A stretch of 64,000 bases of DNA from Candidatus Nomurabacteria bacterium (GTDB lineage: Bacteria > Patescibacteriota > Minisyncoccia > Phycocordibacterales > UBA9973). The stretch lies in assembly GCA_023898605.1 (NCBI GenBank), contig CP060230.1, positions 530,444-594,443 on the forward strand, given 5' to 3'. Below, one piece after another: positions 1,257 through 63,779 of this stretch (the first letter of the stretch is position 1; the number at the start of each line of letters is the position of its first letter). The position numbers and the translations under genes are program-made. Below the pieces are notes generated by a model. The model did no database searches and was not told the DNA's origin. It was given only the letters and a program-made list of their open reading frames with translations.

Positions 1257-1331
1257 AAAGAGATTGATTCCCTTTTAGTATATATATACATATCCGTAAA
1301 ATCAAACCTTTTATATGGTAAACTTCTACCA

Positions 1332-1466
1332 TGAGAATCATATCTTGGAACCCCGAACAATCTCTCACAAGTTCGAGATTTTACGGGGCGAGAAGTGGTC
1401 ACTATTTTATTCGCAGCTCAATAAAGTGTTAAAATATTTTTATGTTGAGAATCATATCTTGGAACC
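1332..1466 (-). mobile_element. Small GC-hairpin insertion (copy A) with 21-bp direct target duplication at the 5' end of xth
   Basis: TGAGAATCATATCTTGGAACC occurs at 1332-1352 and again at 1446-1466. The 93-bp insert between them carries TTCTCGCCCCGTA on the minus strand, an inner hairpin and TTGTTCGGGG. The module architecture matches copies at 17297-17400 and 60916-61019. Confidence 0.55.
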
Positions 1467-2278
1467 TAAACGGTATAAGGGCTGTACACAAAAAGGGCTT
1501 ATTTCTACCTCTAATAGAAAAATATGACCCAGACATAATATGTCTACAAGAAACAAAGTCAGAAAAAGATCAGATAGATATAGATTTGCCTTCTTATGAA
1601 GAGTTTTGGAATAGTGCAGAAAAACGCGGTTATAGCGGTACTGCTATATTTGTAAAAAAATCTACAAAACTCCCAAAAACCAAAAAAGTTTTGTTCGACA
1701 TACCAGAAAAAATTGAGAAGAAGTACAAATCACTCAAGGACACATACGGAGATCCAAATCGTGAAGGAAGAGTTATTGCTCTAGAAACAGAAAAGTTTTT
1801 TTTAGTAGATGTATATACTCCAAACGCAAAAGACGATCTTTCGCGCGTCTCTCTCCGACACAACAAGTGGGACCCAGCTTTTCTGGAATATGTAAAAAGT
1901 CTCGCAAATCCTTCGACTGGCTCAGGACAGGGAAAGCCAGTTATATTTTGTGGAGACTTGAATGTTGCTCATACTGAGATAGATCTTGCTCGCCCAAAGC
2001 AAAATGTTGGAAAGAAAGGTTATACAAACGAAGAACGAGAAGGTATAGACAATATAATAGATAGCGGTTTTGTCGACGCGTTTAGAATTTTTGAAAAAAG
2101 TGGTGGACACTATACTTGGTGGAGCCACTTTGCAAAAGCACGCGAGAGAAACGTCGGCTGGAGAATAGACTACTTTTTTGTTTCGAAAAACCTTGTGAGT
2201 AAGGTCAAAGACTGCAAGCACCTTACCGACTATATGGGCTCAGACCATTGCCCGATCATGATAGACATCATGATTTAG
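1442..2278 (+). CDS. xth: Exodeoxyribonuclease III (ExoIII/APE1 family AP endonuclease)
   Basis: The N-terminus MLRIISWNLNGIRA...CLQETK and the C-terminal SDHCPI are typical of the Xth family. The gene has 278 aa. Confidence 0.9.
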   Translation: MLRIISWNLNGIRAVHKKGLFLPLIEKYDPDIICLQETKSEKDQIDIDLPSYEEFWNSAEKRGYSGTAIFVKKSTKLPKTKKVLFDIPEKIEKKYKSLKDTYGDPNREGRVIALETEKFFLVDVYTPNAKDDLSRVSLRHNKWDPAFLEYVKSLANPSTGSGQGKPVIFCGDLNVAHTEIDLARPKQNVGKKGYTNEEREGIDNIIDSGFVDAFRIFEKSGGHYTWWSHFAKARERNVGWRIDYFFVSKNLVSKVKDCKHLTDYMGSDHCPIMIDIMI

Positions 2279-2435: not shown

Positions 2436-3242
2436 ATGAAAAGAAACATTTTCTTTCTCGCAATCGTCGCCGTTGCGGCGCTTGCATTTTCTTCCTGTGG
2501 TCAGAAAGACTCTGGCACCACATATTACATGTTCACCGACGTTGACACCTGTGTCATGAGACATTATGAACCGGTCCTCGCACCGATCAATCTCTGCTCT
2601 GGTGGTACCAGCAGGTATCAGAAGGTGGTGGATTATACCACTGTCTACGATACCTGTATCACCAGAAAAAACCTCTGGGTTGCGGTTTACGGTAATGGAT
2701 CTGTTGTGGTTTACGACAACAATCGGAACCCACTGCCTGGAAATGGTAGTGTGGACATAACGAATCCCGGAACTCCCGTTCCTGGAATCGGTTTTGTTCC
2801 TCCAAATCCTGGAGTAAGTGCTCCTGGTTCTGGTTCCGGTGGTGGTGGAAATGAAACATGGAACAAGATCTGGCCATGGCTGATAGCTGCTCTCGTAGCT
2901 GTACTGGCTTGGTCATTCATTTCCCTACGTCATCAGAAAAGCCGTGACGCAGAGCAGCGCCGGCGTCATGCAGATAATGCCGAAGCTGAGCGTTTGCGTT
3001 CCGCAAGGATCACCAACGACCAGGCTGAGGAAAATCTTCGCGCTCAAAGAGCGCGAACCCAACAAGAGGCAGACGATCACGTTTCCCAAAGGAAACTGAA
3101 CGCCATCCTCGCAGTGATGGATAAGGTTCAAAAGGATGGTTCTGACGATCGTGTCACTTACCAAAACGGTGATGAGATATATATCATCGAGTCCAGTGCT
3201 CATCCGGCCAAGGATCCTAATGATGAACCCCAAAAAGACTGA
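2436..3242 (+). CDS. Lipoprotein (signal peptide plus lipobox FSSC), Gly/Pro-rich, with one TM segment and a charged C-terminal region
   Basis: N-terminus MKRNIFFLAIVAVAALAFSSCGQ. The middle section has GSGSGGGG low complexity. Confidence 0.6.
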   Translation: MKRNIFFLAIVAVAALAFSSCGQKDSGTTYYMFTDVDTCVMRHYEPVLAPINLCSGGTSRYQKVVDYTTVYDTCITRKNLWVAVYGNGSVVVYDNNRNPLPGNGSVDITNPGTPVPGIGFVPPNPGVSAPGSGSGGGGNETWNKIWPWLIAALVAVLAWSFISLRHQKSRDAEQRRRHADNAEAERLRSARITNDQAEENLRAQRARTQQEADDHVSQRKLNAILAVMDKVQKDGSDDRVTYQNGDEIYIIESSAHPAKDPNDEPQKD

Positions 3243-3382
3243 TCTCCTTCAGAGGATCAAAGCCCCGAGTAAAATCGGGGCTTTCTTTTATTTAAAATAC
3301 GAAAATCAAACATCATTTATTTTGCAGCAACCTTGTAGAGTTAAATTATAAATTATAAATATAATATTATATTTATAATTTT

Positions 3383-3420
3383 ACATTTATTTAACAACAC
3401 GACCGTGTTGTTAAATAAAT
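3383..3420. promoter_or_regulatory. 38-bp near-perfect palindrome (ATTTATTTAACAACACG-AC-CGTGTTGTTAAATAAAT)
   Basis: 18-2-18 inverted repeat immediately 3' of the PaaX-like gene. It is related to the palindrome at 4025-4062 5' of the same gene and to the ACACG/CGTGT palindromes at 8880-8932. Confidence 0.45.
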
Positions 3421-3442
3421 AAAAAAAAAGATTATTTTTTAA

Positions 3443-4024
3443 TTAACTTAGGTCAAACTTTTTCTTCCAATACTCCTCGTTGTCTATTTTTTCAGCTAAA
3501 ATATAATTTACATTATATCCGAAACCAAACTTATTTTTTGATAAAGATATAAACTCTTCTGCATCATAAGGATATATCCATATACTATTTTGAAACTTTT
3601 GAAAACCAAATTTTTTTAAATTAGTTCTAAACAAATCTCTTTTTGATCTGTTATTTTCGTAAACATCAAAAGAAACCAGTCTCCACTTTTTGTCCCATTT
3701 TTTACTGGTATTTTTATTTGGGAAAATCCCCAGTCTTTCTTTTCCACTTTTTGTTATAATAACTTTTATCTTTTCGCCACTATTTATTTTTTGTAAATAA
3801 CCTTTTTGAATGAGTGAATCAAAAACTTTATTATAACTATTCTTTTTTTGAGGAGTTATATCACCGACTCCTATTTTTTGTAGTATAGATTTTTGAGAAA
3901 AAATCGAGTCTTTTTGGTTTGCGTATAAAATTATTGGGTTTTCATATACAAAGTTTAATACTTTTAAAATATTTTTTCCTAACCTTACTTTTTCAAGTTT
4001 CTTTTTTTCTTTTATCTTTTTCAC
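3443..4024 (-). CDS. PaaX-family-like transcriptional regulator (N-terminal wHTH; C-terminal W-D-K-K-W-R-L-V-S-F-D motif)
   Basis: WDKKWRLVSFDVYENNRSKRDLFRTNLKKFGFQKFQNSIWIYP matches the PaaX signature WDGxWRLVxFxIPE..R..R..L...L..LGF..LQ.SVWI.P. The N-terminus looks like a winged helix. Confidence 0.6.
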   Translation of the reverse strand: MKKIKEKKKLEKVRLGKNILKVLNFVYENPIILYANQKDSIFSQKSILQKIGVGDITPQKKNSYNKVFDSLIQKGYLQKINSGEKIKVIITKSGKERLGIFPNKNTSKKWDKKWRLVSFDVYENNRSKRDLFRTNLKKFGFQKFQNSIWIYPYDAEEFISLSKNKFGFGYNVNYILAEKIDNEEYWKKKFDLS

Positions 4025-6057: not shown

Positions 6058-6717
6058 TTAGTTTGTACTGTTAGACACTCCACCTTTCGATTCCCCTGGT
6101 AGATTGTTTATGAAGTTGTTTAAGCCACTTTCTACGGCACTGTTTACTTCTCCTGTTTGTGAAACGCCAAGGTAACTCTGGAAACTATTGATTGCCGATA
6201 CTGTTTCTCCACCCATTGTTCCTGTTATCGCGTTTTCTGGCAAGAATCCTCTCATCCAAAGAAGCATTTGAGTTGTAATAACTGGATTACTAGAATTTAC
6301 AGAAACTTCTCCCGCTTGGTCTATAGAGATTACAATATCAGTTCCTGTATCTTCTCCATAATATATTTCGCCACCTATATTACAGCCATCTTCTGGAAAA
6401 AGTCCTGCGGGTGTACCGCTGTATGTTTGAGAAGTTCCATCACTAAAGAAGAACGTAACTGTACATCCGCCACTGTAATCAAATTCTGTAGTTGTGTTTA
6501 CTAGGTATTTTTTTAGTTCATTTTGCCCATTACCCATACCTATATTATCTATATTTTTGTTTATAGGTTTTCTGTTTGCTACATCACCCACCTTCCCAGA
6601 AAAGTAGTTGTCTGGTGAGCCTGTATATTTGTTTATAAAGTATCCAGATATCAAGATTAGAACTATAAGGATTACAAGTCTAAGTGATGAATATCTGGGA
6701 TCTTTGAATAAATTCAT
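6058..6717 (-). CDS. Membrane-anchored hypothetical protein (N-terminal TM, Gly/Thr-rich ectodomain)
   Basis: N-terminal segment LRLVILIVLILISGYFINK. A bidirectional terminator lies downstream at 6024-6056. Confidence 0.45.
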   Translation of the reverse strand: MNLFKDPRYSSLRLVILIVLILISGYFINKYTGSPDNYFSGKVGDVANRKPINKNIDNIGMGNGQNELKKYLVNTTTEFDYSGGCTVTFFFSDGTSQTYSGTPAGLFPEDGCNIGGEIYYGEDTGTDIVISIDQAGEVSVNSSNPVITTQMLLWMRGFLPENAITGTMGGETVSAINSFQSYLGVSQTGEVNSAVESGLNNFINNLPGESKGGVSNSTN

Positions 6718-6888
6718 AATTTTTGATTAATTAATTTTAATAATAGTATTTTAACAAGAAATATATTTTATTTATTTACTCGATGTTTCTTGTGTAACTC
6801 TCCTACTTCCGACTCTTCCAACTCGTCTTTTTTACTTTTTCCTTAAATCATTTGCTCTGCAAATGATCGGGCGACTACAAAAATATTT

Positions 6889-9973: not shown

Positions 9974-9991
9974 TTTTTAACTAACAAAAAG

Positions 9992-10166
9992 CTGTTTTAC
10001 TTGCCCAATATAGAAATTTCTTTGTCGGGGCACTGGGATTCCCCTTCGGGCCGGGGTTTTTCCATCGAATTTTCGATATGATAAAACCCTTCGAATCCCA
10101 GGCGTAAAACAAGCAGTTGTTTTACTTGCCCAATATAGAAATTTCTTTGTCGGGGCACTGGGATTC
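9992..10166. repeat. 49-bp direct repeat: tRNA-Pro 3' end plus downstream flank duplicated 125 bp away (att-like)
   Basis: TGTTTTACTTGCCCAATATAGAAATTTCTTTGTCGGGGCACTGGGATTC occurs at 9993-10041 and 10118-10166. The second copy continues into the tRNA-Pro T-arm and body; the first diverges. Confidence 0.6.
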
Positions 10167-10222
10167 GAACCCAGAGTCGCTCGCTCCCAAAGCGAGTATG
10201 TTAGCCGTTACACCATGCCCCG
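10150..10222 (-). tRNA. tRNA-Pro (anticodon TGG)
   Basis: The reverse complement CGGGGCA..CTCGC-TTTGGGA-GCGAG..GGGTTCGAATCCCAG-TGCCCCG-A is 73 nt. Confidence 0.8.
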
Positions 10223-13835: not shown

Positions 13836-14180
13836 TTATTCTAACCACTTTTTGTCTAAATAATACTCTACACTTTCTTTGTCCATATCTCCTTTTATGT
13901 ACTCAAGTGCAAGACTTTTGTCTTTTTCCCTAAGAGATTCTATTTCGCTAAAAATTTTTTCAAAATCCTCTCTACTTGTTTCATTTCCTTCTAGCCACCC
14001 TTTGTCTAGATAAGACTGTATATCTTCTTTTGACATCTCTTCTCTAGCATAGCTAAGCAATAAGTCTTGTGCTTTTTCGCTCATAGCACCTACTTTTTTG
14101 AGAATTTTTTCAAAATCCTCTCTACTAATTCTATCTTCTTTTGTTTCAGGTGTATTTGCACCAGGAAATCCTTCATTCAT
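13836..14180 (-). CDS. Hypothetical protein with internal tandem duplication (two REDFEKI...YLDK.WLE modules)
   Basis: Residues ~20-66 and ~68-114 are clear repeats. Confidence 0.5.
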   Translation of the reverse strand: MNEGFPGANTPETKEDRISREDFEKILKKVGAMSEKAQDLLLSYAREEMSKEDIQSYLDKGWLEGNETSREDFEKIFSEIESLREKDKSLALEYIKGDMDKESVEYYLDKKWLE

Positions 14181-16682: not shown

Positions 16683-16714
16683 AAACCCGCACTCTTTGGT
16701 GCGGGCTTTTTCTA
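16683..16714. terminator. Bidirectional terminator (CCCGCAC-TCTTTG-GTGCGGG + T-run)
   Basis: A-run, hairpin, then T-run between convergent genes. Confidence 0.6.
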
Positions 16715-17296
16715 TGACTTTGCTTTTGTGATTATGTCGTCGATGAGTCCGTATTTTTTTGCTTCGTCAGCCTCCATATAGTTGTCTCTATCGGTGTCTT
16801 TTTCTACTTTGTCTATTTTTTGGCCTGTGTTTTTAGAAATTATTTCGTTTAGAACTTTTTTCCATTTGAGTATCTCTCTTGCTTGGATTTCTACATCTGA
16901 AGCTTGTCCTTGTGTGCCACCAAGTGGTTGGTGGATCATGATTCTAGAGTTTGGAAGAGCAAATCTTTTGCCTTTTGCTCCGCCAGAAAGTAGAACTGCA
17001 CCCATAGAAGCCGCCATACCTACACATATAGTAGATACATCTGGTTTTATGTATTGCATTGTGTCGTATATGGCCATACCAGCTGTTACTGAACCTCCTG
17101 GTGAGTTGATATATAGCTGTATGTCTTTCTTTGGATCTTCGTGAGCTAGAAATATAAGTTGTGCGATTACAAGGTTAGAAGTGTAATCGTTTACTTCATC
17201 GTTTAGAAAAACGATTCTTTCCTTGAGTAGGCGAGAGTATATGTCGTAAGCTCTTTCTCCAAATTGTGATTTTTCTAGTACGGTAGGTATCAACAT
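16712..17296 (-). CDS. clpP: ATP-dependent Clp protease proteolytic subunit
   Basis: Catalytic-triad context ([12 protein letters not shown]) in a 194-aa ORF. Confidence 0.9.
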
Positions 17297-17400
17297 AAGA
17301 TAAAAATTGATTAAGTTTATAAAAGTCTTTATTTGTTAAATCAGCACTTCTCGCCCCGTACTAAAAATGAAGCAACGAGCGCTTTTTAGTATTGGGGGGA
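17297..17400 (+). mobile_element. GC-hairpin element copy B (degenerate; no clean flanking duplication)
   Basis: Sits in the clpP-tig intergenic region. A ~52-nt AT-rich segment is followed by CTTCTCGCCCCGTA, an inner hairpin (ctaaaaa...tttttag) and TATTGGGGGG. Confidence 0.4.
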
Positions 17401-17460
17401 CTGTTGAGATTAACATATGTTTTTACTAATTAGTTTTGTATTTTCGAATAATAACAATTT

Positions 17461-22058: not shown

Positions 22059-24140
22059 ATGATAAAAAGTTTTAGCAAAATAATTCTTATATTCTCAATA
22101 CTATTTTTGTTTGGATTTAGTAAGTCTTTTGCTGGGACAGGGGACAATGTTACCGGTTGGGCGTGGTCTTCCAACATAGGTTGGATATCTTTCAACTGTG
22201 TTACAGATAGCTCTTGTGATGCCGGGACACTTTTTGATGATCCTGGAGCAGATGGGACACTCGAAGGTCCTGGCGGAGACACTATTCCAGGAACAGAAGA
22301 CACAGGAGGAACAGATGCTGGAACAGGATTTATAGAAAATTCTTGGAGGATGCTTGTTAATAAAACTATAGAGTCTTTCGATACTGCTTTTGTTTCACCT
22401 ACATATAAAATATACAAAAAACTCTCTTATCTTATAAAAGATACTCTTTCTCCAGAGACTATATACGCAGATGATCTAGATGGGATTTCTCCTCCTGGAG
22501 TTGATTATGGAGTAAACATAGATCCTCTGACAGGAAGTATGTCTGGTTATGCATGGAGTGAAAATATAGGTTGGATTTCTTTCAACGAATCTTCAGGATG
22601 CCCCGGAGAAGGTATTTGTAGTCCTAGTATGGACCTTGGAACTGGCGCACTAAAAGGTTGGGCAAAGGCAATAAACGGAAACACATCTGACGACGGTTGG
22701 GATGGGTGGATCTCTCTTTCTTGTAAGAACCACGATTTGGTTATTTGTTTTCCAAGCTACAAGGTTAAGTTTGATCTTGGAACAGGTGCAACAAGCGGTA
22801 CAGATAGATGGGCATGGGGAAGCGATGTTATAGGATGGGTATATTTTGGAGATGTTGTTGTTGATCTACCTCAGCCAACACTTTCTCTCGTTGCTACTCC
22901 AAATATTGTTTCTGCTGGCGGATCTACTTCACTTTCTTGGACATCTACAAGTACTACTTCTTGTAGCGCATCTTCTTCTGACGCACTTTGGACCGGTACA
23001 AAACCTACAAACTCTATAGCACCGGAGTCAGTTATACCTTCTGGCGATATCGTCCTTACAGATGAGTTTGGAGATATACACTATTACACAAAATATGTGA
23101 TGGATTGCGATACAACAACAGGTGAACCGATTTCTTCAGAAGAATATGTAGAAGTTATATACGAAGATGGTGTTTCAGCTGGAAGTTTGGTTCTACAAGC
23201 ATCTCCAACAATTGCTTCTGGTGACAACGGATACAAAGTAAAACTTACTTGGTATTCTCCTACAGCTACAACACTCACATCTTGTGTTGCAAACTCTTAC
23301 TCTATAGCAACTGGAACAGACGTCCCTCTAACTGGAACTGGCTGGACAGGACCACAAACATCACTAACAGCTACAAACTCTTACACCGCAAGTACTCCGG
23401 GTGAAACTATATTTGTTCCAGAAAATCCGACAAAATACTCTATAACTTGTGAAGATGTTCTTGCTAGCGAAAGCGTAACTGCAACAACCGTTGTACCTAG
23501 AGTTCTAGCGGTGCCGAGTGTAGATATATTTGCATCGAGTCCGTCTGGAACACCTGGATCATACAACGTTGATCTTTCTTGGGAACCACTAAACGTGACT
23601 TCATGTACTGCTTCTAACGAAGATGGAATATCTGGTTGGTCTGGACCAAAGTCTGCGCTACCTGGTCTCAATACTCAAAGTGACGTTAGTCTTTCTGACG
23701 GAGGGACAACTTATACCATTACTTGCTCTGGTGCTTATGGTTCTGCGAGTGATTCTGTAACAGTGTTCCCGCCTTCTGATCCTGGAGATGACGGAGATAC
23801 TTCATGTACAGATTGTTTCCCAGCTGATGGACCTGCTGTTGCGCTAACATATGCTGATTTTATTCCTGGAGTATTGGTTCCTGGATCTGTGACACTTATC
23901 TGGAAAACACAAGACGTTGTTTCTTGCGAAGCTTCTTCTACTGATACTCTCTGGACTGGGCCAAAAGCTGCAACTCCAGATGGAATATATACAGAGGTAG
24001 GGGTGCTCTATACATCACCGTTTGAAGATTACACAATTACATGTATAGGCGACGACGACTCAACAGTTTCTGACACGCTTAAGCTCAACGATTCTTCACC
24101 GAAAAACCCAATTGTAAGACCGACTTGGATAGAGTTTTAA
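22059..24140 (+). CDS. Large secreted repeat protein (G(W/Y)AWS.NIGWISFN repeats, then four ~90-aa LSW..SC.AS..W.GPK modules)
   Basis: Signal peptide. GWAWSSNIGWISFNC, GYAWSENIGWISFNE and WAWGSDVIGWVYFGD. Repeated LSWTSTS..SCSAS / LTWYSP..SCVAN / LSWEPLNVTSCTAS / LIWKTQDVVSCEAS modules. Confidence 0.65.
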   Translation: MIKSFSKIILIFSILFLFGFSKSFAGTGDNVTGWAWSSNIGWISFNCVTDSSCDAGTLFDDPGADGTLEGPGGDTIPGTEDTGGTDAGTGFIENSWRMLVNKTIESFDTAFVSPTYKIYKKLSYLIKDTLSPETIYADDLDGISPPGVDYGVNIDPLTGSMSGYAWSENIGWISFNESSGCPGEGICSPSMDLGTGALKGWAKAINGNTSDDGWDGWISLSCKNHDLVICFPSYKVKFDLGTGATSGTDRWAWGSDVIGWVYFGDVVVDLPQPTLSLVATPNIVSAGGSTSLSWTSTSTTSCSASSSDALWTGTKPTNSIAPESVIPSGDIVLTDEFGDIHYYTKYVMDCDTTTGEPISSEEYVEVIYEDGVSAGSLVLQASPTIASGDNGYKVKLTWYSPTATTLTSCVANSYSIATGTDVPLTGTGWTGPQTSLTATNSYTASTPGETIFVPENPTKYSITCEDVLASESVTATTVVPRVLAVPSVDIFASSPSGTPGSYNVDLSWEPLNVTSCTASNEDGISGWSGPKSALPGLNTQSDVSLSDGGTTYTITCSGAYGSASDSVTVFPPSDPGDDGDTSCTDCFPADGPAVALTYADFIPGVLVPGSVTLIWKTQDVVSCEASSTDTLWTGPKAATPDGIYTEVGVLYTSPFEDYTITCIGDDDSTVSDTLKLNDSSPKNPIVRPTWIEF

Positions 24141-24160: not shown

Positions 24161-24883
24161 ATGAAAACAAATCTAGAAACAAAAATAAAAACACTGATAC
24201 TTTCTGCAATATTTATATCTGCTATTGGTGTTGTTGGCGCAGAAGATTTCGGTGTTTGGAACTATCCAGCCTGTGGCGGTGGAGAATGTAACACTCCAGG
24301 ACTTGTAAATGAGTCTGTTACATCACAAGGAAAAGAAGGTGATCTATATGTAGTGGCTGACGAGGATATTCCTTCTTCTTCTGGTGAAATTTATGCAGAC
24401 AGAATCGGTATATGGGGAGACTCTTTCTTGTTTGGTAGTCTAGATATAGGTGATGGAACAGAACCGTCTTCTCTTAGTGTTTTGGGAGACGTAACCCTTC
24501 ATGACAAAAGATCAGCAAACCCTCTAAATGCAGGAGTAACATATCCAGCTGACATATGTGTAGATTCAGATGGTAAAACTGTTATATGTACTGGTGATAC
24601 TGATACTGGTTTTGACCCAGAAACTTTTTCTATGCATGACTATACAACTATAGTTGAGACCGGGCTTGTAGAGGGAAACAATGTTGTTGCAACTTGTCCA
24701 GCTAGTCATCCGAATCTTATAGGTGGCGGAGGATATTGTTCATCGACAGGACTCGGAACAAGTGAGACAGTCATGAAAAGTATCCCTTATAAGAATACCG
24801 GTAGTCCAACATATAACGCATGGATGACAGACTGCGAAAACACAAATGACACTACAACTTCGTATGCAATATGTTCAATATAA
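24161..24883 (+). CDS. Secreted Cys-containing protein, paralog 1 of 3 (C..HP..IGGGGYC ... YAICSI)
   Basis: Signal/TM N-terminus and shared C-terminal motifs with the next two genes. Confidence 0.55.
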   Translation: MKTNLETKIKTLILSAIFISAIGVVGAEDFGVWNYPACGGGECNTPGLVNESVTSQGKEGDLYVVADEDIPSSSGEIYADRIGIWGDSFLFGSLDIGDGTEPSSLSVLGDVTLHDKRSANPLNAGVTYPADICVDSDGKTVICTGDTDTGFDPETFSMHDYTTIVETGLVEGNNVVATCPASHPNLIGGGGYCSSTGLGTSETVMKSIPYKNTGSPTYNAWMTDCENTNDTTTSYAICSI

Positions 24884-24885
24884 AT

Positions 24886-25596
24886 ATGAAAAATAACCTA
24901 AAGAAAAACATAAAAATAATCTCTATTGCCCTTGTTGCCGCTTTGGGTTATTCTCTATTTGCTAGTGCGTGGTCTATACCTACAGGATATCCTCCATACA
25001 GTAACAAATCTAATCCTATAAATAGTCTAAACTCTGATCAGTATAAATATGCGAACCTTTCTATTTTCGACGACACAACAACAGCTGCGATAGAGGGTTC
25101 ACTAGTTGCCGATAGATTTGAAATATTTGGTTCAGATTTTGGACCAAGCGTATTTTTCGATGCAGTAAATATAGGTCATCCAGCAATAACAACAAGTCTT
25201 GATGCGTCACTCTATATAAAAGAAAATGCTAGTATGTCTGTAACTTCACTAGACGAGGGTGTTCTAGGGGTAAACACAGACGGAGTTATGGTCACAAGAC
25301 CAAACGAGGTTGGAGATCCAGTGTTTTATAGTGCGGGTTCGACAATGACAGTAGTTTATAAAGATTTTGATACAAATAACCCGTATATGGTTTGTCCGGT
25401 AGATTATCCATATATAATCGGTGGTGGAGGATACTGTACTGGGGACGGGCTAACATCTGAAAAAATACAAAAATCAATCCCAGACTCTTTGGGCGGAAAT
25501 GTAGACGGTATAGATCATTTAGAGTACACAAACTGGGGGTTTGGATGTAAGGGTATAGGTGACAATGGTCGTATATATGCGATATGTTCAAAATAG
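24886..25596 (+). CDS. Secreted Cys-containing protein, paralog 2 of 3
   Basis: CPVDYPYIIGGGGYCTGDGL ... YAICSK. The start is taken at MKNNLKK. Confidence 0.55.
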   Translation: MKNNLKKNIKIISIALVAALGYSLFASAWSIPTGYPPYSNKSNPINSLNSDQYKYANLSIFDDTTTAAIEGSLVADRFEIFGSDFGPSVFFDAVNIGHPAITTSLDASLYIKENASMSVTSLDEGVLGVNTDGVMVTRPNEVGDPVFYSAGSTMTVVYKDFDTNNPYMVCPVDYPYIIGGGGYCTGDGLTSEKIQKSIPDSLGGNVDGIDHLEYTNWGFGCKGIGDNGRIYAICSK

Positions 25597-25598
25597 TT

Positions 25599-26327
25599 AT
25601 GAATAAAATAAACAATAAAAAAGAAATATTGAGTTTGGTAGCAGTGACTTTTGTTATTGCGATTGTTGCTGGTATAGGATCATTTGTTTCTGCATGGTCA
25701 GAACCGGGAAGTGGTTGTAACCCTCCTTCTTGTGATACTGTTTCACCGATAGACGTGAAAAATATTTCTAATAATAAATCAGGAAGAATTTTTATCCAAG
25801 ACAACACTGCAACTGGTGGAGTAGAAGAAGGTCAGGTTTCAGCTGACAGAATATATACATGGGAAGATGGATCCGTTATAAAAGGCGACACTCTTATAGG
25901 TGTGGCTGGTATAACTGGAGTTACTCCAAATTTGTTTGTAAAAAAAGATTTAGTTTTTGATCCTTATAATGAATATAATAGCCCTGGAGTATTTCCAAAA
26001 AATCTTTGTATAAATAGTACCGGAGAGATTGTCACATGTGATGCAATCCCAGAAGGTGAGGATCCGTTCTACTCATATTCTAGAGATATAACTATAGTTC
26101 ACCCCACAAGTGCACTAACCTCTGATGACAGGACAGCATATTGTCCAGCAACACACCCATATGTGATTGGTGGAGGTGGAGAGTGTTATCCAGACGGACT
26201 ATTTGATCAAAAAGGAATAAAAAGACTCGAACCTATAAAAAGTGGCGCAGCTTACTACAATGCATTCAAGATAGAATGTAGAGCCACAACATCGGAAATA
26301 GAAGTTTACGCAATCTGTTCAAAATAA
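25599..26327 (+). CDS. Secreted Cys-containing protein, paralog 3 of 3
   Basis: CPATHPYVIGGGGECYPDGL ... YAICSK. The start is taken at MNKINNKK. Confidence 0.55.
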   Translation: MNKINNKKEILSLVAVTFVIAIVAGIGSFVSAWSEPGSGCNPPSCDTVSPIDVKNISNNKSGRIFIQDNTATGGVEEGQVSADRIYTWEDGSVIKGDTLIGVAGITGVTPNLFVKKDLVFDPYNEYNSPGVFPKNLCINSTGEIVTCDAIPEGEDPFYSYSRDITIVHPTSALTSDDRTAYCPATHPYVIGGGGECYPDGLFDQKGIKRLEPIKSGAAYYNAFKIECRATTSEIEVYAICSK

Positions 26328-53149: not shown

Positions 53150-54910
53150 ATGTATATTTTTTCTAGAAAAAACTTACTAAAAATTTTTATTCTGACTTGT
53201 TTTATAGCACTGCCTTTTTCGAAAGTTTTTGCAGCAGAAATATACGATGATTACAGGTATGCAGTGATACTGGAAGATAGTAGTCGTATAAATATGAAAA
53301 CCGACTACGGTGTAAATGTTTACAATAGCTCTGTTACCGGTTATGCATGGAGTGAAAATTATGGATGGATAAACTTCGATCCTTCTGGTGATGAGGGTGT
53401 AGAAAACAACAACGGAACACTTCTTGGCTACGCCTGGGGAGAAAATTTAGGATGGATAAACTTTGCTCCAACAAATGGTGGAGTAACAATAGATTCTGAC
53501 GGATATTGGCACGGTTATGCATGGAGCGAGAAAGTTGGATGGATTGCTTTCAACTGTAGCGAATCAACACTCTGTGACACATACAAAGTTAGATCACAGT
53601 GGACATCTAACGGTGCATCTGGCGGCGGCGGAGGTTCATCTGGTGGCGGATCTTCTACTACAACAGAAGAGCCGCCCGTAATACCTCCTACTGTAGAGAA
53701 TCCACCAGTAGATTCTGGAGATACTACTCCTATAAACAACAATGATAATCCTGGAAACGATGGAGACATCTCTAGCCCAGATATAGATACTCCCGTACCA
53801 CCAATTCCTCCTATAGAGGAACCAGATATTCCTCTTCCTACTGAGGACAATGTTCCAGATAACTTCAATCCTTTTTCGGACGCAGTTTTGAGTAGCATTT
53901 CTATACTTGAAGATATAATAATCTCCACACTTTCGCTTGCTGAAAACATAGTGTCTTCTCCAGAAGGAGATACAACTGTAAAAATAGTAACAACTCTAGG
54001 TATTATCTTTGCAGGTATTTCTTCTATGATATCTGTAATGTTTGCCAACCCTCTATCTATATCTGAGATAGTTTTGATACCAGTTAGACTTTGGTCACTT
54101 CTTTTGACTGCTCTTGGTATAAGAAAGAAAAACAAACCTTGGGGTGTTGTATATGATGCTGTAACAAAGCAACCACTAGACCCGGTTTACGTTACTCTTT
54201 TTGACGAGATGAATAGCGAAGTTGGGAGCACTATAACTGATATTGACGGTAGATACGGATTCTTTGTTAGTCGTGGTAGATACAGAGTAGTACCTGGTAA
54301 AACTCACTATAGTTTTCCGTCTAGTCTTATGGCCGGCAAAGACAAAGACGAACTTTATAACGATATATATCACGGAGAAATTTTTGAAATCACAAGTGAT
54401 GAATCTATTATTACAAAAAACATTCCTATGGATCCAGTTGGTTTTGACTGGAATGAATATGCAAAGAGTCAAAAAAATCTGAATCTATTCTACTCTAGAA
54501 TGGATAAATTCTTGGCAGTATTTTCAGACGTGTTGTTTGTTCTAGGTTTTGCTATTTCTATAATTGCTACAACCGTTTCTCCTGTTTTGTATAACATAAT
54601 CATAATGTCTCTATACGTAGTCATGCTATTTTTGAAAGAAACTGTTTTGAGACCAAAACCACAAGGAAGAATAATTTTTGGAGGTGAACCACTTGCTTTT
54701 GCTATTGTAAAAGTTTATGACGCAAACACCGGCATGATGATTGGTAAAAAACCTACAAATAAAAATGGAGCATTCTATCTACTAGTAGGAAAGGGAACAT
54801 ATTACTTAACTATCGACAAAAAACTAGATGACGGTACTTATCAAGAAGTACACAAAACAAGCAGTTTTGAGGCAAAAACTGGTTATATAGACCAAAAAAT
54901 ATCTTTTTAA
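53150..54910 (+). CDS. Surface/membrane protein with three GYAWSEN.GWI.F repeats, a Gly/Ser/Pro-rich linker, TM segments and a carboxypeptidase-regulatory-like beta-sandwich domain
   Basis: GYAWSENYGWINFDPS, GYAWGENLGWINFAPT and GYAWSEKVGWIAFNCS. DGRYGF and KNGAFYLLVGKGTYYLTI motifs lie near the C-terminus. Confidence 0.6.
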   Translation: MYIFSRKNLLKIFILTCFIALPFSKVFAAEIYDDYRYAVILEDSSRINMKTDYGVNVYNSSVTGYAWSENYGWINFDPSGDEGVENNNGTLLGYAWGENLGWINFAPTNGGVTIDSDGYWHGYAWSEKVGWIAFNCSESTLCDTYKVRSQWTSNGASGGGGGSSGGGSSTTTEEPPVIPPTVENPPVDSGDTTPINNNDNPGNDGDISSPDIDTPVPPIPPIEEPDIPLPTEDNVPDNFNPFSDAVLSSISILEDIIISTLSLAENIVSSPEGDTTVKIVTTLGIIFAGISSMISVMFANPLSISEIVLIPVRLWSLLLTALGIRKKNKPWGVVYDAVTKQPLDPVYVTLFDEMNSEVGSTITDIDGRYGFFVSRGRYRVVPGKTHYSFPSSLMAGKDKDELYNDIYHGEIFEITSDESIITKNIPMDPVGFDWNEYAKSQKNLNLFYSRMDKFLAVFSDVLFVLGFAISIIATTVSPVLYNIIIMSLYVVMLFLKETVLRPKPQGRIIFGGEPLAFAIVKVYDANTGMMIGKKPTNKNGAFYLLVGKGTYYLTIDKKLDDGTYQEVHKTSSFEAKTGYIDQKISF

Positions 54911-57969: not shown

Positions 57970-58563
57970 ATGGGAGAATTCAAAATTTATAAGAATGGGC
58001 ACCCTGTCCCTTCAGAGAGTCTCCTTATAAAAGAAATAAAGAGAGACCCGCCAGTGAGAATTGAAAAAGAGAGAAAAAGTTTGGTGCAAATCGTTGCCGA
58101 CGAAAGCCATAACCTTTCAAACTCTTTTTTAAAAGAAGCTTTTTCCCCTCCAGAAAACCCAGAGAATTTTTTGATCAAAAAGGAAGGTCTGGTCGTTATA
58201 GACCACTCTTCTTTTGGAGAGGGAGTAAATCAAATATTCTCTTTTCTAAGCAGTAATTCGGTAAAAGACGGATCTTTGGTTCTCATAACATATGGTTTAC
58301 CATCAAACATGAGAAAAAAAGATATTTTACCAATAAGGGAACTTATCTATCAAAAGGTTTCGTTTGCTGTTGTCGTAGGAGAAGACATATCTGTCGAAAG
58401 GAGATTCAATAAATTGAACTCTATTGTTCACGCCAACACTCTAGAGGAAGCCGTTTTTTTCCTCAAGAACATGGACAAGGACAAGATAGGATGGTTTCTT
58501 CCATGGAAAAGAAACGGGGATTTTGAAAGCATTTTTCTCAAGGATGCACTACGCGCGGTTTAA
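57970..58563 (+). CDS. Hypothetical protein inserted between rpsG and fusA
   Basis: 197-aa ORF of unrecognised family. It has its own upstream terminator and a downstream hairpin (CGCGCGGTTTAAACCGCGC). Confidence 0.45.
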   Translation: MGEFKIYKNGHPVPSESLLIKEIKRDPPVRIEKERKSLVQIVADESHNLSNSFLKEAFSPPENPENFLIKKEGLVVIDHSSFGEGVNQIFSFLSSNSVKDGSLVLITYGLPSNMRKKDILPIRELIYQKVSFAVVVGEDISVERRFNKLNSIVHANTLEEAVFFLKNMDKDKIGWFLPWKRNGDFESIFLKDALRAV

Positions 58564-58655: not shown

Positions 58656-58785
58656 CGGATCCCGTACGAAATAGCGGACGCGATCATGCAAATAAAAATC
58701 AAGGTCAATTTATTATTTTAATTGGAAATTAGGATAAAACCCGCACTATAGGTAAGGGTCCGCGTCCTATTTCGTAACGGGATGG
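58656..58785 (+). promoter_or_regulatory. Long-range inverted repeat (~23-bp arms, ~75-bp spacer) in the fusA leader; the right arm covers the fusA start codon
   Basis: TCCCGTACGAAATAGCGGACGCG (58660-58682) pairs with CGCGTCCTATTTCGTAACGGGA (58761-58782) with two single-nt bulges. The ATG is at 58782. Confidence 0.45.
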
Positions 58786-60938
58786 AAAGAGATTATCCAC
58801 TAGAAAAAGTAAGGAACTTTGGGATTATTGCCCACATCGACGCCGGAAAAACTACTACTTCCGAGCGTGTTTTGTACTACACCGGTGTTTCTCACAAGAT
58901 TGGTGAGGTTCACGAAGGTGAAGCTACAATGGACTGGATGGAACAAGAAAGAGAGAGAGGTATTACTATTACCTCTGCTGCTACTACTTGTTTCTGGACA
59001 CCTACATACGTAGGCGACAAAGAAGACAAAAAAAGCAAATTTAGGTTCAACATAATCGACACACCTGGACACATCGACTTCACAGTTGAGGTGAAAAGAT
59101 CTATGAGAGTTTTGGACGGAGCAGTTGTTGTGTTTGACGGTGTTGCTGGTGTAGAGCCACAATCAGAAACAAACTGGAGATATGCCGACGAAGCCAACGT
59201 GCCAAGAGTTTGTTTTATAAACAAATTAGACAGAACAGGTGCTTCTTTTGAGAAGTCATATCAATCTATTATAGATAGACTTTCAAAGAGTGCAGTTAGA
59301 ATGCAGCTTCCTATCGGACTAGAAGATCAGCACGAAGGTGCAGTAGATCTTCTTACAAGAAAAAGCTACAGATTCTCAGGAAAAATGGGAGACGAAATCA
59401 TAGAAGGTGATGTCCCAGAAAACATGAAAGAAGAAGTTGAGAAATACCGAAATGAACTTGTAGAGTCTATCGTTTCAAACGATGAGACTATGATGAACGA
59501 CTATCTAGAAGGCAAAGAGCCAGAACTAGCTGTTCTAAAAGCAACACTTAGAAAGGCAGTTATCGCAAACAAGATCTTTCCTGTTTATTGCGGTAGTGCC
59601 CTAAAGAACAAAGGTGTTCAACTAGTTCTAGACGCAGTTGTTGACTTTCTTCCTTCTCCTCTAGATGTTCCTCCTGTAAAAGGAATTGATCCTGAAACAG
59701 AAGAGGTAGTAGAGAGAAAGACAGAAGACGGAGAACCTCTTTCTGCACTTGCTTTCAAAGTTGCTACAGATCCATTTGTAGGACAACTTATATTCTTCAG
59801 AGTTTACTCTGGAACCCTTTCCGCTGGTAGCTATGTCTACAACCCTAGAACTGGTTCAAAAGAAAGAATCGGTAGAATCTTGCGTATGCACGCAAACCAA
59901 AGAGAAGAAGTAAAGAAAGTTTACGCTGGAGAAATCGCAGCAGCTGTTGGACTAAAAGATACTATTACATCTGACACACTCTGTGACGAAGAACACCCAA
60001 TCGAACTAGATAGAATCGTGTTCCCAGAACCAGTTATCTCTCTTAGAATCGAACCAAAGACAAAATCTGATCAAGAGAAACTCGGTATGTCACTTTCTAG
60101 ACTTGCTCAAGAAGACCCAACATTTAGAGTTTCAACTGACTCTGAAACAAACGAAACAATCATCGCTGGTATGGGAGAACTTCACCTAGACATAATCGTA
60201 GACAGACTAAAGAGAGAGTTCTCAGTAGAAACAGTTGTCGGTAAACCTCAAGTTGCTTATAGAGAAACAATTACAGGTGACGCTGATGTAGAAGGAAAAT
60301 ACATCAAACAATCTGGAGGTAGAGGTAACTACGGTCACGTAAAGATCAAAGTAAAACCACTAGATCAGAAGATGACAAAGGAAGATATAGAAAAACTACC
60401 GAAGAACGTAAAGAGAGAAGACCACTTCGAATTCATCAACAACATCAAGGGAGGTGTTATTCCACAAGAATACATTCCTGCTTGTGAAAAAGGATTTAGA
60501 GAAGGTCTAGACAGAGGAATACTTGCAGGATTCAAGATGGTAGATGTTTCTGTTGATCTATATGACGGTAGTTATCACGAAGTTGACTCAAACGAAATGG
60601 CGTTCAAGATCGCTGCTTCTATGGCTATTCAAGAAGCTTGTCAAAAAGCTAGACCAGTTATCCTAGAGCCTATGATGAAGGTAGAAGTTGTAACTCCTGA
60701 CCAGTTCATGGGAGACGTTTCTGGAAACCTTTCTTCTAAGCGTGGTCTTATCGAAGGTATGGAAGATAGAGGTATGAACAAAGTTGTAAAAGCTGTTGTT
60801 CCTCTTTCTGAAATGTTCGGATTCATGACAACACTTAGATCTATGACTGAAGGTAGAGCATCATTCAACATGGAATTCCTAAGATATGATATTGTTCCAC
60901 AAAACGTTGCGGATGAAATAATCAAATCACGTAAATAA
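58782..60938 (+). CDS. fusA: Elongation factor G
   Basis: G domain [10 protein letters not shown] and DTPGHIDF. 718 aa. Confidence 0.9.
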
Positions 60939-61041
60939 TTGAAATTAGAAAAGGCTAGATAATCAATTCTCGCCCCGTACAAAGAACCGCATGAATTCAT
61001 GCGGTTCTTTTGTTCTGGGGTTCCACAAAACGTTGCGGATG
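60894..61041 (+). mobile_element. GC-hairpin element copy C with 22-bp direct duplication of the fusA 3' end
   Basis: GTTCCACAAAACGTTGCGGATG occurs at 60894-60915 and 61020-61041. The 104-bp insert carries TTCTCGCCCCGTAC (60967-60980), a perfect inner hairpin (60981-61010) and TGTTCTGGGG. The insert also supplies the current fusA stop. Confidence 0.55.
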
Positions 61042-61097
61042 CCTGTTCGCCTTGGGTGGGAAATCATAAAATCTAGAAAATAATATAAAAATAAATC

Positions 61098-61126
61098 AAA
61101 AAAACCGCGCCTTGCGGTTTTTTTGA
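61098..61126. terminator. Bidirectional terminator (AACCGCGCCTTGCGGTT + T-run)
   Basis: A-run, hairpin, then T-run. Confidence 0.55.
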
Positions 61127-61163
61127 TTTGGTGTAATCTTTTGTTTAAATAAAAAGTACAATT

Positions 61164-61595
61164 TTGTCAAAAAGAAAAAAGCATCCGAATAAAAAAGAAT
61201 TGGACAAAATTCTTATTGACCTTATAACGTGGCCCACAAAGCCATCTGCTAGGTTACTGGAACATCTTCGTTTTGTATTGATTACTGGAAATGTTTTTGA
61301 TCTCCCTTTTCATACACAAGGATCTGGCGCCTCTGTTGATATAGAAAGACAACACCTTATCCTTGTTTTTAGGGATCTTGTAGAAGGTACCAGTACAAAA
61401 TTTGAGGGTAATCAGGAGTATTTGAAGTATGTGCGCTTGTATATGCGCACAAAAGACAAATATCTTCTAAGTTATTACGAGGAAATATTGAAGTTCCTTA
61501 TTTGCATTGGGGCTGATAGAAATAAGTATTGTAACAAAAGGGTTATAAGTAAAATAAACATTTCCATTAAAAACATCGAAGAAAATGTTTTGTAA
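61164..61595 (+). CDS. Hypothetical protein
   Basis: 143-aa ORF followed by a hairpin terminator (AGCTACCCAGGGGTAGCT + T-run). Confidence 0.4.
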   Translation: MSKRKKHPNKKELDKILIDLITWPTKPSARLLEHLRFVLITGNVFDLPFHTQGSGASVDIERQHLILVFRDLVEGTSTKFEGNQEYLKYVRLYMRTKDKYLLSYYEEILKFLICIGADRNKYCNKRVISKINISIKNIEENVL

Positions 61596-61657
61596 AGCTA
61601 CCCAGGGGTAGCTTTTTTATTTGTGCAATTTTGTTTTTAGTGTAGTATGATTTCAAA

Positions 61658-62359
61658 ATGAACAAAGACATGAAAACAGCTATAGTAGTCGGTGCGACTG
61701 GCGAGATCGGCGGAGCTATAGCTTCGCTCCTTGTAGAAAAAGACTTCCATGTGATTTGCTTTGGCCGAGACAAGACAAAACTCTCAAGTCTAAAGAAAGA
61801 TCTAGGAGAAAACGTCTCAACTTTCTCAGTTGATCTTCGTGACACTGAAAATTTGGAAATGATGATCTCTGACATCAAACTTCAATACAAGAAAATTGAT
61901 CTTGTTGTAGGAGCAGCAGGTTTCTTTGAGTGGGACAACGAGTCCCCGAGTTTGCTCTCTGCGATATCAAAGATTTCCGAAGCTAACTTCGACTCAAAGG
62001 CGAGGTTTTACGACTCTTTCAAAGAAGTTTTCAAACCAAAAGGGGTGGTTTTCAAATTTGTCGGATCTCACATTGCCGACGAAAAACTTTTTTCTGACTC
62101 TGATATCGAAAAGTTCGGTGAAGTAGCTTATGCTTACGCTATGAAAAACCTACGCAAGTGGGTTGCCCAAAAAAAGAGAGAAGATATCGACAATACCATT
62201 TTGATATCTGAACCAGGGTTGATAGATACAGCTATGGCCAGAAGAAAGTTCACCAAAGAAAGACTCGGTTATGAACCTGATTGGCAGAGAGAATCTCTAA
62301 AACCGGAAGATTATGCAAATATCTTCTGGAAAGAAGATCTCGAAGAAATTTTCCAATAA
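61658..62359 (+). CDS. Short-chain dehydrogenase/reductase-like NAD(P)-binding protein
   Basis: N-terminal VVGATGEIGGAIA Rossmann motif. 233 aa. Confidence 0.55.
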   Translation: MNKDMKTAIVVGATGEIGGAIASLLVEKDFHVICFGRDKTKLSSLKKDLGENVSTFSVDLRDTENLEMMISDIKLQYKKIDLVVGAAGFFEWDNESPSLLSAISKISEANFDSKARFYDSFKEVFKPKGVVFKFVGSHIADEKLFSDSDIEKFGEVAYAYAMKNLRKWVAQKKREDIDNTILISEPGLIDTAMARRKFTKERLGYEPDWQRESLKPEDYANIFWKEDLEEIFQ

Positions 62360-62585: not shown

Positions 62586-63779
62586 ATGGCAGATTTTGAC
62601 AGATCAAAACCTCACGTAAACGTAGGTACAATTGGTCACGTTGACCACGGTAAGACAACTCTTACTGCGGCTATTTTGCACGTTCTATCTAGAGCAGGTG
62701 GAGAATACGGTGCAGCTATTAAAGGTGTCGATCAAATCGACAAGGCGCCAGAAGAAAAAGCGAGAGGAATAACAATTTCTCTTTCTCACAACGAATACTG
62801 GACACCAACAAGACACTACGCTCACATTGACGCGCCAGGTCACGCTGACTACATCAAGAACATGATTACAGGTGCAGCTCAGATGGACGGTGCTGTTATC
62901 GTAGTTGCAGCAACAGACGGTGTTATGCCACAAACAAGAGAACACATCCTTCTTGCAAAACAAGTTGGTGTGCCTAAGATAATCGTTTTCCTAAACAAGT
63001 GTGACATGGTAGATGACAAAGATCTTCTAGACCTTGTTGAAGAAGAGGTAAGAGAGCTTCTAGAGAAGCAAGGATTCGACAAAGACTGTCCTGTTATAAG
63101 AGGATCAGGTCTTAAGGCTCTTGAATCAGCTTCAAACGATGACGAATGGGCTAAGAAAGTTATGGAACTTATCGAAGCTCTAGATACTTACATTCCACTT
63201 CCAGAAAGAGAAGTAGACAAACCATTCCTTATGCCTATCGAAGACATATTCTCTATCGAAGGTAGAGGTACTGTTGTTACAGGTAGAATCGAAAGAGGTA
63301 AGGTTGTAGTTGGAGAAGAAGTAGAAATCGTTGGTATCAAAGAAACATCAAAGACTACAGTTACTGGAGTTGAAATGTTCAACAAGCAACTAAAAGAAGG
63401 TCTTGCTGGAGACAACGCAGGTATCCTTATAAGAGGTATCAAGAAAGACGACATAACAAGAGGACAAGTTCTTGCAAAGCCAAGTTCTGTAAATCCTCAC
63501 ACAGAATTTGAATGTGAAGTTTACATTCTTAAAAAAGAAGAAGGTGGACGACACACTCCATTTATGAACGGTTACAAGCCTCAGTTCTACGTAAGAACTA
63601 CAGACGTTACAGGAGAAGTTACTCTTCCAGAAGGAACAGAAATGGTTATGCCTGGTGACACTGTAAAACTAAAAGCAAAACTAGTTGTACCAGTTGCTCT
63701 AGAAGAACAACAAAGATTTGCGATAAGAGAAGGTGGAAAGACTGTTGGTGCCGGTGTTGTTACAAAGGTCATCGCCTAA
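62586..63779 (+). CDS. tuf: Elongation factor Tu
   Basis: [18 protein letters not shown] and NKCD. 397 aa. Confidence 0.95.

Follow-up and report, generated by a model that had tools for sequence, protein, structure and literature searches.

What happens to an essential protein when a small hairpin-bearing insert lies at the very end of its gene? This question is raised by fusA, the gene of elongation factor G (EF-G), in a stretch of 64,000 nucleotides from a Candidatus Nomurabacteria bacterium (assembly GCA_023898605.1, contig CP060230.1, positions 530,444 to 594,443 of the forward strand), hereafter called the window. A sequence-only reading of this DNA had noticed a recurrent GC-rich hairpin element, one copy of which (copy C) lies between two copies of a 22-nt segment of the fusA end. 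It had proposed that this insertion duplicated its target, supplied the present stop codon and terminator, and replaced the C-terminal residues of EF-G. EF-G itself is unchanged and fusA has two termini, not a 22-bp target duplication around a foreign C-terminus. We propose that copy C is one of a family of small non-coding modules, found across Patescibacteria at the termini of conserved genes, each of which carries or creates a spare terminus, a proposal that we rate somewhat short of an even chance. The family looks like an undescribed miniature mobile element.

The 3' end of fusA

The fusA gene (58782..60938, + strand) is intact according to the list of open reading frames (ORFs) and its translation. 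It encodes an EF-G of 718 residues, 100% identical to a Candidatus Nomurabacteria EF-G, with a canonical C-terminus of which 14 residues are shared with orthologues. The 22-mer GTTCCACAAAACGTTGCGGATG has two exact sites in the window, 60894-60915 and 61020-61041; no third site was found there with up to 3 mismatches, and shuffled sequences gave 0 matches. The DNA between the two copies is as had been described: fusA ends, and an AT-rich arm of 28 nt leads to TTCTCGCCCCGTAC, a perfect palindrome of 30 nt (AAAGAACCGCATGAATTCATGCGGTTCTTT) and then TGTTCTGGGG. The hairpin region has a predicted folding energy of -31.1 kcal/mol (z = -7.4). The G at 61020 also closes the GGGG of the element, which leaves an unambiguous repeat of 21 nt.

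This repeat is only the head of a longer duplication. In what follows, X1 is the gene-end copy attached to the gene body, X2 the second copy, found after the hairpin, and the core is made of a conserved box, the hairpin and a closing GGGG; L numbers are labels of the loci compared. At fusA, X1 (60895..60938, + strand) is contiguous with the gene and holds its last 14 codons and the stop. It begins with the first copy of the repeat, 21-22 nt at 60894/5-60915, and its start is located 72 nt upstream of the box. The arm (60939..60966, + strand) extends from the fusA stop to the box over 28 nt and is not conserved among copies A, B and C, the three copies of the window. Its first ~16 nt resemble the native region downstream of fusA in the closest relative, L248. 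The core (60967..61020, + strand) comprises the box TTCTCGCCCCGTA, a long hairpin with two bulged T on its 3' arm and the GGGG, and scores 38.1 bits with our covariance model (E = 1e-7).

X2 begins directly after the GGGG with its head of 21-22 nt (61021..61041, + strand). A 19-nt GC-rich indel, GCCTGTTCGCCTTGGGTGG (61041..61059, + strand), then shifts the frame of the second fusA end, and the homology resumes behind it as GAAATCATAAAATCTAGAAAATAA. The X2 tail (61060..61083, + strand; like the indel, read directly from the letters) is GAA ATC ATA AAA TCT AGA AAA TAA, that is EIIKSRK and a stop. It differs from 60915-60938 at 5 positions, all synonymous, and its codons TCT AGA are those of the relative L001. 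The indel is also present in the three other assemblies of the same species that extend far enough. Copy C as a whole is identical in other assemblies of this species wherever the contig reaches far enough, and is therefore fixed there. Behind X2 comes a terminator-like hairpin (61093..61129), and the DNA from fusA to the next ORF contains no other. Its score in the scan is for the minus strand, and the A and T runs on both sides make it symmetric. The order at this locus is thus fusA-X1(EIIKSRK*)-arm-core-X2(22 nt + 19-nt indel + recoded EIIKSRK*)-terminator.

Both reading frames through the 22-mer copies are as the sequence-only reading gave them. However, the ending ...NVADACSPWVGNHKI (also given as ...ADACSPWVGNHKI), which it took for the ancestral one, turns out to be an artefact of the frameshifting 19-nt indel, with the recoded EIIKSRK and the terminator lying just behind. 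Nor does the replacement of the EF-G C-terminus hold. The close relatives L248, L001 and L002 (only 84-86% EF-G identity) have an empty site where the same EF-G ending runs straight into a terminator, and the best 120 EF-G homologues (80-86% identity) end in the same 14 residues or close variants. Relatives ending in EIIKSRK without the element are what that reading itself had named as evidence against it. The terminator does not come from the insert either: the hairpin of the core has no T-run, TTCCACAAAA comes next, and the terminator scan made no call on it. As for the stop codon, on one of the two readings that survive, the last 7 codons and the stop did arrive with the element, without making the C-terminus foreign.

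Two further copies in the window

The box and hairpin occur at three sites of the window, 1351-1394 (-), 17348-17397 (+) and 60967-61020 (+), for a pattern expectation of 0.02, and the same three copies were recovered by the covariance model scored at every position. The three hairpins differ from one another. The recurrent element seen in the sequence-only reading is real, as is its association with a duplicated fusA 3' end.

Copies A and B lie at gene starts. In both, the segment left of the arm, taken in the orientation of the element, is the antisense of the first codons of the gene, and a second copy follows right after the GGGG. Copy A (core 1351..1394, - strand, 22.3 bits) adjoins xth, the exodeoxyribonuclease III ORF (1442..2278, + strand, starting MLRIISWN). 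Its X1 (1446..1464, - strand) is the antisense of the first xth codons and contiguous with the gene, and its X2 (1332..1350, - strand) consists of an identical 19 nt. On the + strand, this X2 opens a 33-aa ORF (1331..1432, MRIISWNPEQ...) that runs into the core. Copy B (core 17348..17397, + strand, 41.5 bits) adjoins clpP (ORF 16712..17296, - strand, starting MLIPTVLE). Its X1 (17278..17296, + strand), the antisense of the clpP start, lies 70 nt upstream of the box, and its X2 (17398..17416, + strand) is a diverged clpP start, ATGTTAATCTCAACAGTCC on the - strand, which reads MLISTV versus MLIPTV in the gene.

Occurrence, structure and geometry of the family

A pattern scan of one genome per species was loose, and most of the matches listed are due to chance, in high-GC genomes; the real copies are from Nomurabacteria, Saccharibacteria, Parcubacteria and other Patescibacteria. 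With a tighter pattern, metagenome contigs gave at least 120 matches, and the two scans pooled contain at least ~100 distinct copies. All the copies sampled are on low-GC contigs of Nomurabacteria, Saccharibacteria or Parcubacteria, or on contigs of that kind. Searching for the box without the closing GGGG returned chance matches only, and a 16-mer scan of viral contigs gave 4 chance matches and one short variant. No Rfam family matches the core: at gathering thresholds the window contains 4 tRNAs only, and all matches to 60850-61150 at E<=10 are far below the gathering score. We found no published description in a limited search of the literature, and one may exist elsewhere.

The geometry is nearly invariant. 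X1 starts 68-73 nt from the box in 93 of 94 anchored copies (mode 71), and X2 starts immediately after the GGGG in anchored copies. The conserved positions of the core are A(C/G)CAC-TTCTCGCCCCGTA ... T(A/T)C(T/C)GGGG; the 25 nt before this conserved stretch (positions -30 to -6) show no consensus. At the junction, the consensus is merely (T)(R)|T(S), so that the GGTTCCA shared by copies A and C, once suggested as a target preference, is not a general one. The duplicated segment measures 20-71 nt across the family and is usually diverged, with its start fixed at 71±2 nt from the box. Runs of perfect identity from the junction on fall at 20-22, 30-35 and 62-65 nt, copy C being in the first group; runs that start exactly at the junction are consistent with a break made there. 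A plain 22-bp target-site duplication was rejected on these grounds, namely that the homology runs past 22 nt and that this pattern is family-wide.

The core is 32-62 nt long and its hairpin varies in sequence, but pairing is maintained by compensatory changes: 95.7% of cells are paired, double changes occur in 6 of 13 pairs, and 0 of 500 shuffles scored as high. Two bulged T on the 3' arm are a feature of the family hairpin. The sense strand folds better in 72 of 99 cores and the antisense strand in 9, with 56 G-T pairs versus 12, and the structure is therefore read on one strand. As that strand is antisense to the gene at gene starts, single-stranded DNA seems a better candidate than RNA. 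Cores from different hosts are 94-100% identical; for the flanking gene the figure is 65-80%, and for the 36 nt left of the box 53-69%. Copies at different targets of one genome share the core and ~28 nt left of the box, not X1 (L005, L017, L100).

A short variant of the core, TTCTCGCCCCGTAGGATTTATTTT(C/T)TGCGGGG followed by a T-run, looks like a terminator and was seen in L213 ((-) ~4325) and L252 (1249, an IMG/VR contig). It has no detectable duplicated gene end, and one instance is on a contig classed as viral. In L005 (4529-4620), the sequence just past X2 (GATTTCTCTACGAACTACGAATTTTG, with TACGAA repeats) recurs ~2.35 kb upstream in the locus and may be a shared upstream regulatory motif.

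Targets

By an ORF test, 53 of 82 copies have a gene body on the left side of X1; 37 of these are at gene starts and 16 at the 3' ends of genes. Of the other 29, ~13 have a tRNA gene on that side, with entry in its D-loop (GGA|TAG). Four belong to the interior of arrays, and most of the rest, judged by eye, have a gene start or the contig edge to their left. Hardly any copy shows the mirror layout, in which the core has the gene body on its right. The targets that recur were assigned mostly by eye from the encoded termini, TypA being confirmed separately. Gene starts are represented by xth, clpP, tsaD, uvrB, typA and lepA-like genes. Besides fusA (at two positions, each after the G of a Val codon, G|T), the genes targeted at their 3' end are ychF, an H+-pyrophosphatase gene and a sodA-like gene, and tRNA genes are targeted at their 5' end. 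The same sites reappear in distant hosts, as is the case for the fusA G|T, the xth, tsaD, uvrB and typA starts and the tRNA D-loop.

A second kind of hairpin-associated duplication is present in the window at a tRNA-Pro gene (10149-10222; duplication 9983-10166, - strand). The last 17 nt of the gene and 42 nt downstream (59 nt, 95% identical) occur twice, 125 nt apart. In the 66-nt insert that separates them there is another hairpin (GGGTTTT...AAAAACCC), along with a stretch that partly resembles a T-arm. This duplication has the period of copy C and, like it, the gene body first, but not the same core.

Divergence of the two gene ends

How do the two ends of one gene differ? We compared 61 X1/X2 pairs over 661 codons and found 97, 71 and 271 differences at codon positions 1, 2 and 3, amounting to 221 synonymous versus 102 non-synonymous codon differences. 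Only 2 of the 61 X2 contain an in-frame stop. The bias is seen for example in L023 (10 synonymous versus 0 non-synonymous) and, counted by eye, in L224 (~18 versus 0). X1 and X2 thus usually differ as orthologues do, and both must have evolved as working gene ends, either in separate lineages or alternating. The neutral decay of a spare copy formed in situ was considered and rejected because of this codon-position bias.

Tandem arrays of 2-3 units, each made of a gene end, an arm and a core, were seen in L023 ((-) 6380-6800), L224 (4600-5300), L141 ((-) 3150-3650) and L135 (1300-1800). L023 displays three successive fusA ends that encode nearly the same 13 residues with different codons, and L141 two units with a common arm and different hairpins. 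In these arrays, the native flank is found at the rightmost copy only.

Search for an enzyme or a larger form

Pfam searches on 30 ORFs of the window found no transposase, integrase, reverse transcriptase or recombinase. No intI was found among these 30 ORFs either, a scan that left out the loci around the other copies. An X2 partner was sought up to 6 kb upstream of every core; it was ~71 nt away or undetectable, and no ORF-bearing version came to light. Looking for a close empty site that would fix the boundaries of the insert, we found none near enough: besides the distance of the fusA relatives, for the recent copy L174 the TypA found in a relative is 96% identical as a protein, but the DNA has diverged too far.

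Two kilobases from copy A, a 193-aa protein (3443-4024, - strand) matches the Cas2-like central domain of PaaX (PaaX_M, E = 1.9e-18) and, weakly, CRISPR_Cas2. No CRISPR array or other cas gene was seen.

Origin of the module

We propose that ~71 nt carrying a working gene terminus form, together with the hairpin, a unit that either is a mobile module or descends from one. Such a unit would insert at R|T within the last or first few codons of a gene and bring its own stop or start, so that the gene would remain intact and the displaced native terminus would be left behind the hairpin. A trans-acting enzyme would recognise the folded strand and make one cut at the foot of the hairpin on the 3' side (GGGG|T) and another ~71 nt 5' of the box. 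The gene-body-left rule follows naturally from a unit made of X1, arm and core, and the arms are specific to the target family. The restriction of the native flank to the rightmost copy of an array also speaks for such a unit. At copy C, the L001-like codons of the X2 tail and the terminator that comes after X2 are evidence that X2 is the native end. More generally, native-looking terminators come after X2, and in L133 and L152 they straddle the 71-nt mark. A unit made of the core and the following 71 nt, which we also considered, is therefore unlikely.

Several observations weigh against this proposal. Besides the absence of any Pfam transposase or integrase from the 30 ORFs scanned, no long, ORF-bearing version of the element was seen. 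The proposal must also explain how a unit with only ~70% identity to its target would find the homologous position. Cores are far better conserved between hosts than the 36 nt left of the box; the core is either under much stronger constraint or moves by itself, leaving the 71 nt behind. In some copies, long and near-identical duplications that take in non-coding flank (L174, 55 of 55 nt; L141, 52; L243, 57; L100, 49; L220, ~71 nt) look like target duplication in situ. At copy C itself, the X1 tail and the arm resemble the native end of L248, which is consistent with X1 being native, and X2 is frameshifted, so that precise excision would be impossible without killing fusA.

The near-identical duplications and the L248-like X1 tail and arm of copy C would be expected from a core-only miniature element, in which the hairpin core and a short variable left arm inserted just outside the gene and duplicated 38-66 nt to their left. 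The left break would be ~71 nt from the box, X1 and the arm would be native and X2 spare, and later differences would come from allelic replacement by diverged relatives. We regard this as somewhat unlikely. It accounts for the near-identical duplications, for the fact that the duplicated part and the non-duplicated left arm always sum to ~71 nt, for the sharing of the core and ~28 nt, without X1, by different targets of one genome, and for cores that are identical in hosts with differing arms. However, copies made in situ should decay neutrally, yet 62% of the differences are at third positions and 59 of 61 X2 frames are open, and recombination at ~70% identity is implausible as the general source of this pattern. 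Harmless insertions, moreover, should have the gene body right of the core as often as left of it, yet they hardly ever do, and no known transposase gives duplications this long with a fixed outer boundary. A scheme could cover both sets of facts, in which a hairpin-bound enzyme would cut out the unit and the latter would re-enter before a homologous sequence. Within the same lineage this would give an apparent long target duplication, and between lineages a recoded pair. Going further, one could imagine a new class of miniature mobile element, directed to its sites by homology to its own cargo, in which a 126-nt single-stranded unit is excised by an enzyme measuring ~71 nt and re-inserted before the homologous stretch of a gene, even in distant genomes, possibly with the hairpin and the sequence following it as a guide. 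The recoded rescue copy would then let it invade fusA, uvrB, tsaD and tRNAs harmlessly, making it a natural analogue of a home-and-rescue gene drive, a hypothesis that we judge rather improbable.

Is mobility needed at all? The core could instead be a host structural element, for instance a hairpin for RNA stability, termination or processing, or a DNA site bound by a protein. It would have been passed on vertically from early Patescibacteria, the spare ends being by-products of nearby recombination. Cores 100% conserved in hosts whose flanking gene is 65-80% identical, covariation that supports a selected structure, a position always just outside gene termini and the terminator-like short variant with its T-run in L213 and L252 all speak for this. 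On the other hand, the element is antisense to the gene at gene starts and sense at 3' ends, and one RNA function cannot serve both; its presence is patchy among close relatives; and neither the tandem arrays and very recent duplications nor the fixed 71-nt geometry are explained. This makes it a distinctly improbable origin. Less probable still, and in our opinion very improbable, is a guide-like system. The hairpin would be a scaffold and the ~20 nt following it (the X2 head) a guide to the gene end, and the element would land just outside the gene, ~50 nt downstream of the match, in the manner of CRISPR-associated transposons and Tn7 at conserved genes. Indeed, in A, C and the tRNA copies the match of 20-22 nt stops 49-51 nt short of the box, five copies including C show perfect runs of 20-22 nt followed by an abrupt drop, and within the genomes of L130 and L139 the first ~20 nt of X1 vary in step with those of X2; the targets are moreover the ends of conserved genes and tRNAs. 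Nevertheless, identity per 10 nt is 0.80, 0.73, 0.70 and 0.69: on average the second 20 nt are almost as similar as the first, which does not support a strict 20-nt guide block. Many copies also mismatch in the first 5 nt. Furthermore, X2 continues as a full homologue of the gene end, which a guide would not need, no effector gene was seen near the copies read, and a sense-strand RNA at gene starts would require antisense transcription.

If the module is mobile, as we tentatively favor, a gene-free element of 126 nt can live in highly reduced genomes, within their most conserved essential genes, because it supplies a copy of the gene terminus. It would imply an enzyme activity not yet known, in which a ruler anchored on the hairpin cuts ~71 nt away. 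It would also provide a marker of DNA exchange between lineages of Patescibacteria, each displaced end being a dated sample of a foreign or former allele. For annotation, the family accounts for short pseudo-ORFs and duplicated gene ends near housekeeping genes and tRNAs, and it calls for caution, as an apparently altered C-terminus may not be altered. Even as a conserved host hairpin, this would be a widespread and strongly constrained structured family that is absent from Rfam.

Other features of the window

The str operon is interrupted around fusA. A 197-aa ORF without Pfam match lies between rpsG and fusA (57970-58563), and a 143-aa ORF without match and a short-chain dehydrogenase lie between fusA and tuf (61164-62359; tuf, 62586-63779). 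L001 and L002 have different genes at these points. Elsewhere, two large ORFs contain repeated coding units of ~87 nt (GGTTATGCATGGAGTGAAAAT...GGATGGAT, of the GYAWSENxGWI type) at 22155-22586 and 53339-53556. Two tandem copies of ~150 nt, 74-75% identical, occupy 13839-14140 on the minus-strand side of an ORF (13836-14180) with no significant Pfam match. Finally, three adjacent ORFs of 240-247 aa (24161-26327), with similar sequence at their junctions and a spacing of 713-731 nt, look like tandem paralogues.

Comparison with known systems

The family shares with MITEs (miniature transposable elements bearing inverted repeats) and with the Correia, RUP, REP/BIME and Rickettsia palindromic elements a short, non-coding, hairpin-forming, multi-copy and non-autonomous nature, as well as a location at gene borders. 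The core measures 32-62 nt and is found three times in the window and at least ~100 times in public contigs. As in such elements, copies at different sites of one genome have sequence in common (L005, L017, L100). Neither the terminal inverted repeats of MITEs nor their short duplications, which have a fixed length (2-10 bp), were found here: there is one conserved end (GGGG) plus the box, and the duplicated segment of 20-71 nt is mostly diverged, at synonymous sites. The copy number is also low (3 in 64 kb).

A parallel can also be drawn with the attC sites of integrons, in which structure prevails over sequence, extrahelical bases mark one strand, the tip is variable, exchange takes place between G and T at the 3' base, small arrays form and function is strand-specific. 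The imperfect hairpin of the family, with its two bulged T, covarying stems and a variable terminal part within a core of 32-62 nt, corresponds to this description. However, the R''/R' consensus (RYYYAAC ... GTTRRRY) is replaced by CCCCGTA...TAC(T)GGGG|T, the units consist of 71 nt of a gene end instead of cassette ORFs, no attI was seen, nor any integron integrase among the 30 window ORFs scanned, and the family sits in or next to housekeeping genes.

Single-strand (HUH) transposition of the IS200/IS605 type, with its miniature derivatives, is similar in its seamless junctions, in the lack of inverted repeats, in a subterminal hairpin on one strand and in cleavage at a set distance. IS200/IS605 elements need hairpins at both ends, and their insertion, on the 3' side of a fixed tetra- or pentanucleotide, duplicates nothing. 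In contrast, our family displays a single hairpin, a weak T-R consensus on the left, a ruler-like left boundary and a duplicated gene end, and no TnpA was found in the window.

With casposons, the likeness lies in the target. Casposons, which use a Cas1 integrase, target the 3'-distal part of the gene of EF-2, the homologue of EF-G, or tRNA genes, and duplicate their target by staggered integration (PMC6614799). The casposon at the EF-2 gene shows this gene end to be a favoured landing site. Casposons insert in tandem at one site, and their target duplications of ~14-15 bp are identical at birth. They are large, with inverted repeats, Cas1 and a polymerase, whereas in our family we found neither inverted terminal repeats nor a fixed short duplication, and Cas1 was not seen. 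A CRISPR array does not fit either: the hairpins of the window differ, the "spacers" are homologous to the adjacent gene, arrays have 2-3 units at most, and the PaaX_M protein at 3443-4024 is the only Cas-like one seen.

By function, the closest analogues are prophages that enter the end of a gene and supply its terminal codons. Phage 21 in icd and the islands of tRNA genes also integrate at gene ends. The prophage e14 in icd, like Rac at the 5' end of ttcA, enters the gene end and supplies the terminal codons, leaving behind a pseudo-end, which for icd' measures 163 bp (PMC6379469). These insertions differ from ours in being prophages or islands of 15-40 kb with their own integrase and a defined att core of identity, whereas the present element is ~126 nt long and non-coding, with a hairpin in place of arm sites, almost no identity required at the junction (T, then S) and a fixed 71-nt geometry. 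Yet in both cases the gene is kept intact by 3' or 5' codons on the side of the element, with a displaced pseudo-copy on the far side, and silent or conservative differences between the copies, housekeeping and tRNA targets and tandem insertions are common to both. An intact gene accompanied by a displaced homologous terminus is precisely what we found across the family and at copy C, where X1 encodes EIIKSRK and a stop and X2 encodes the same in other codons.

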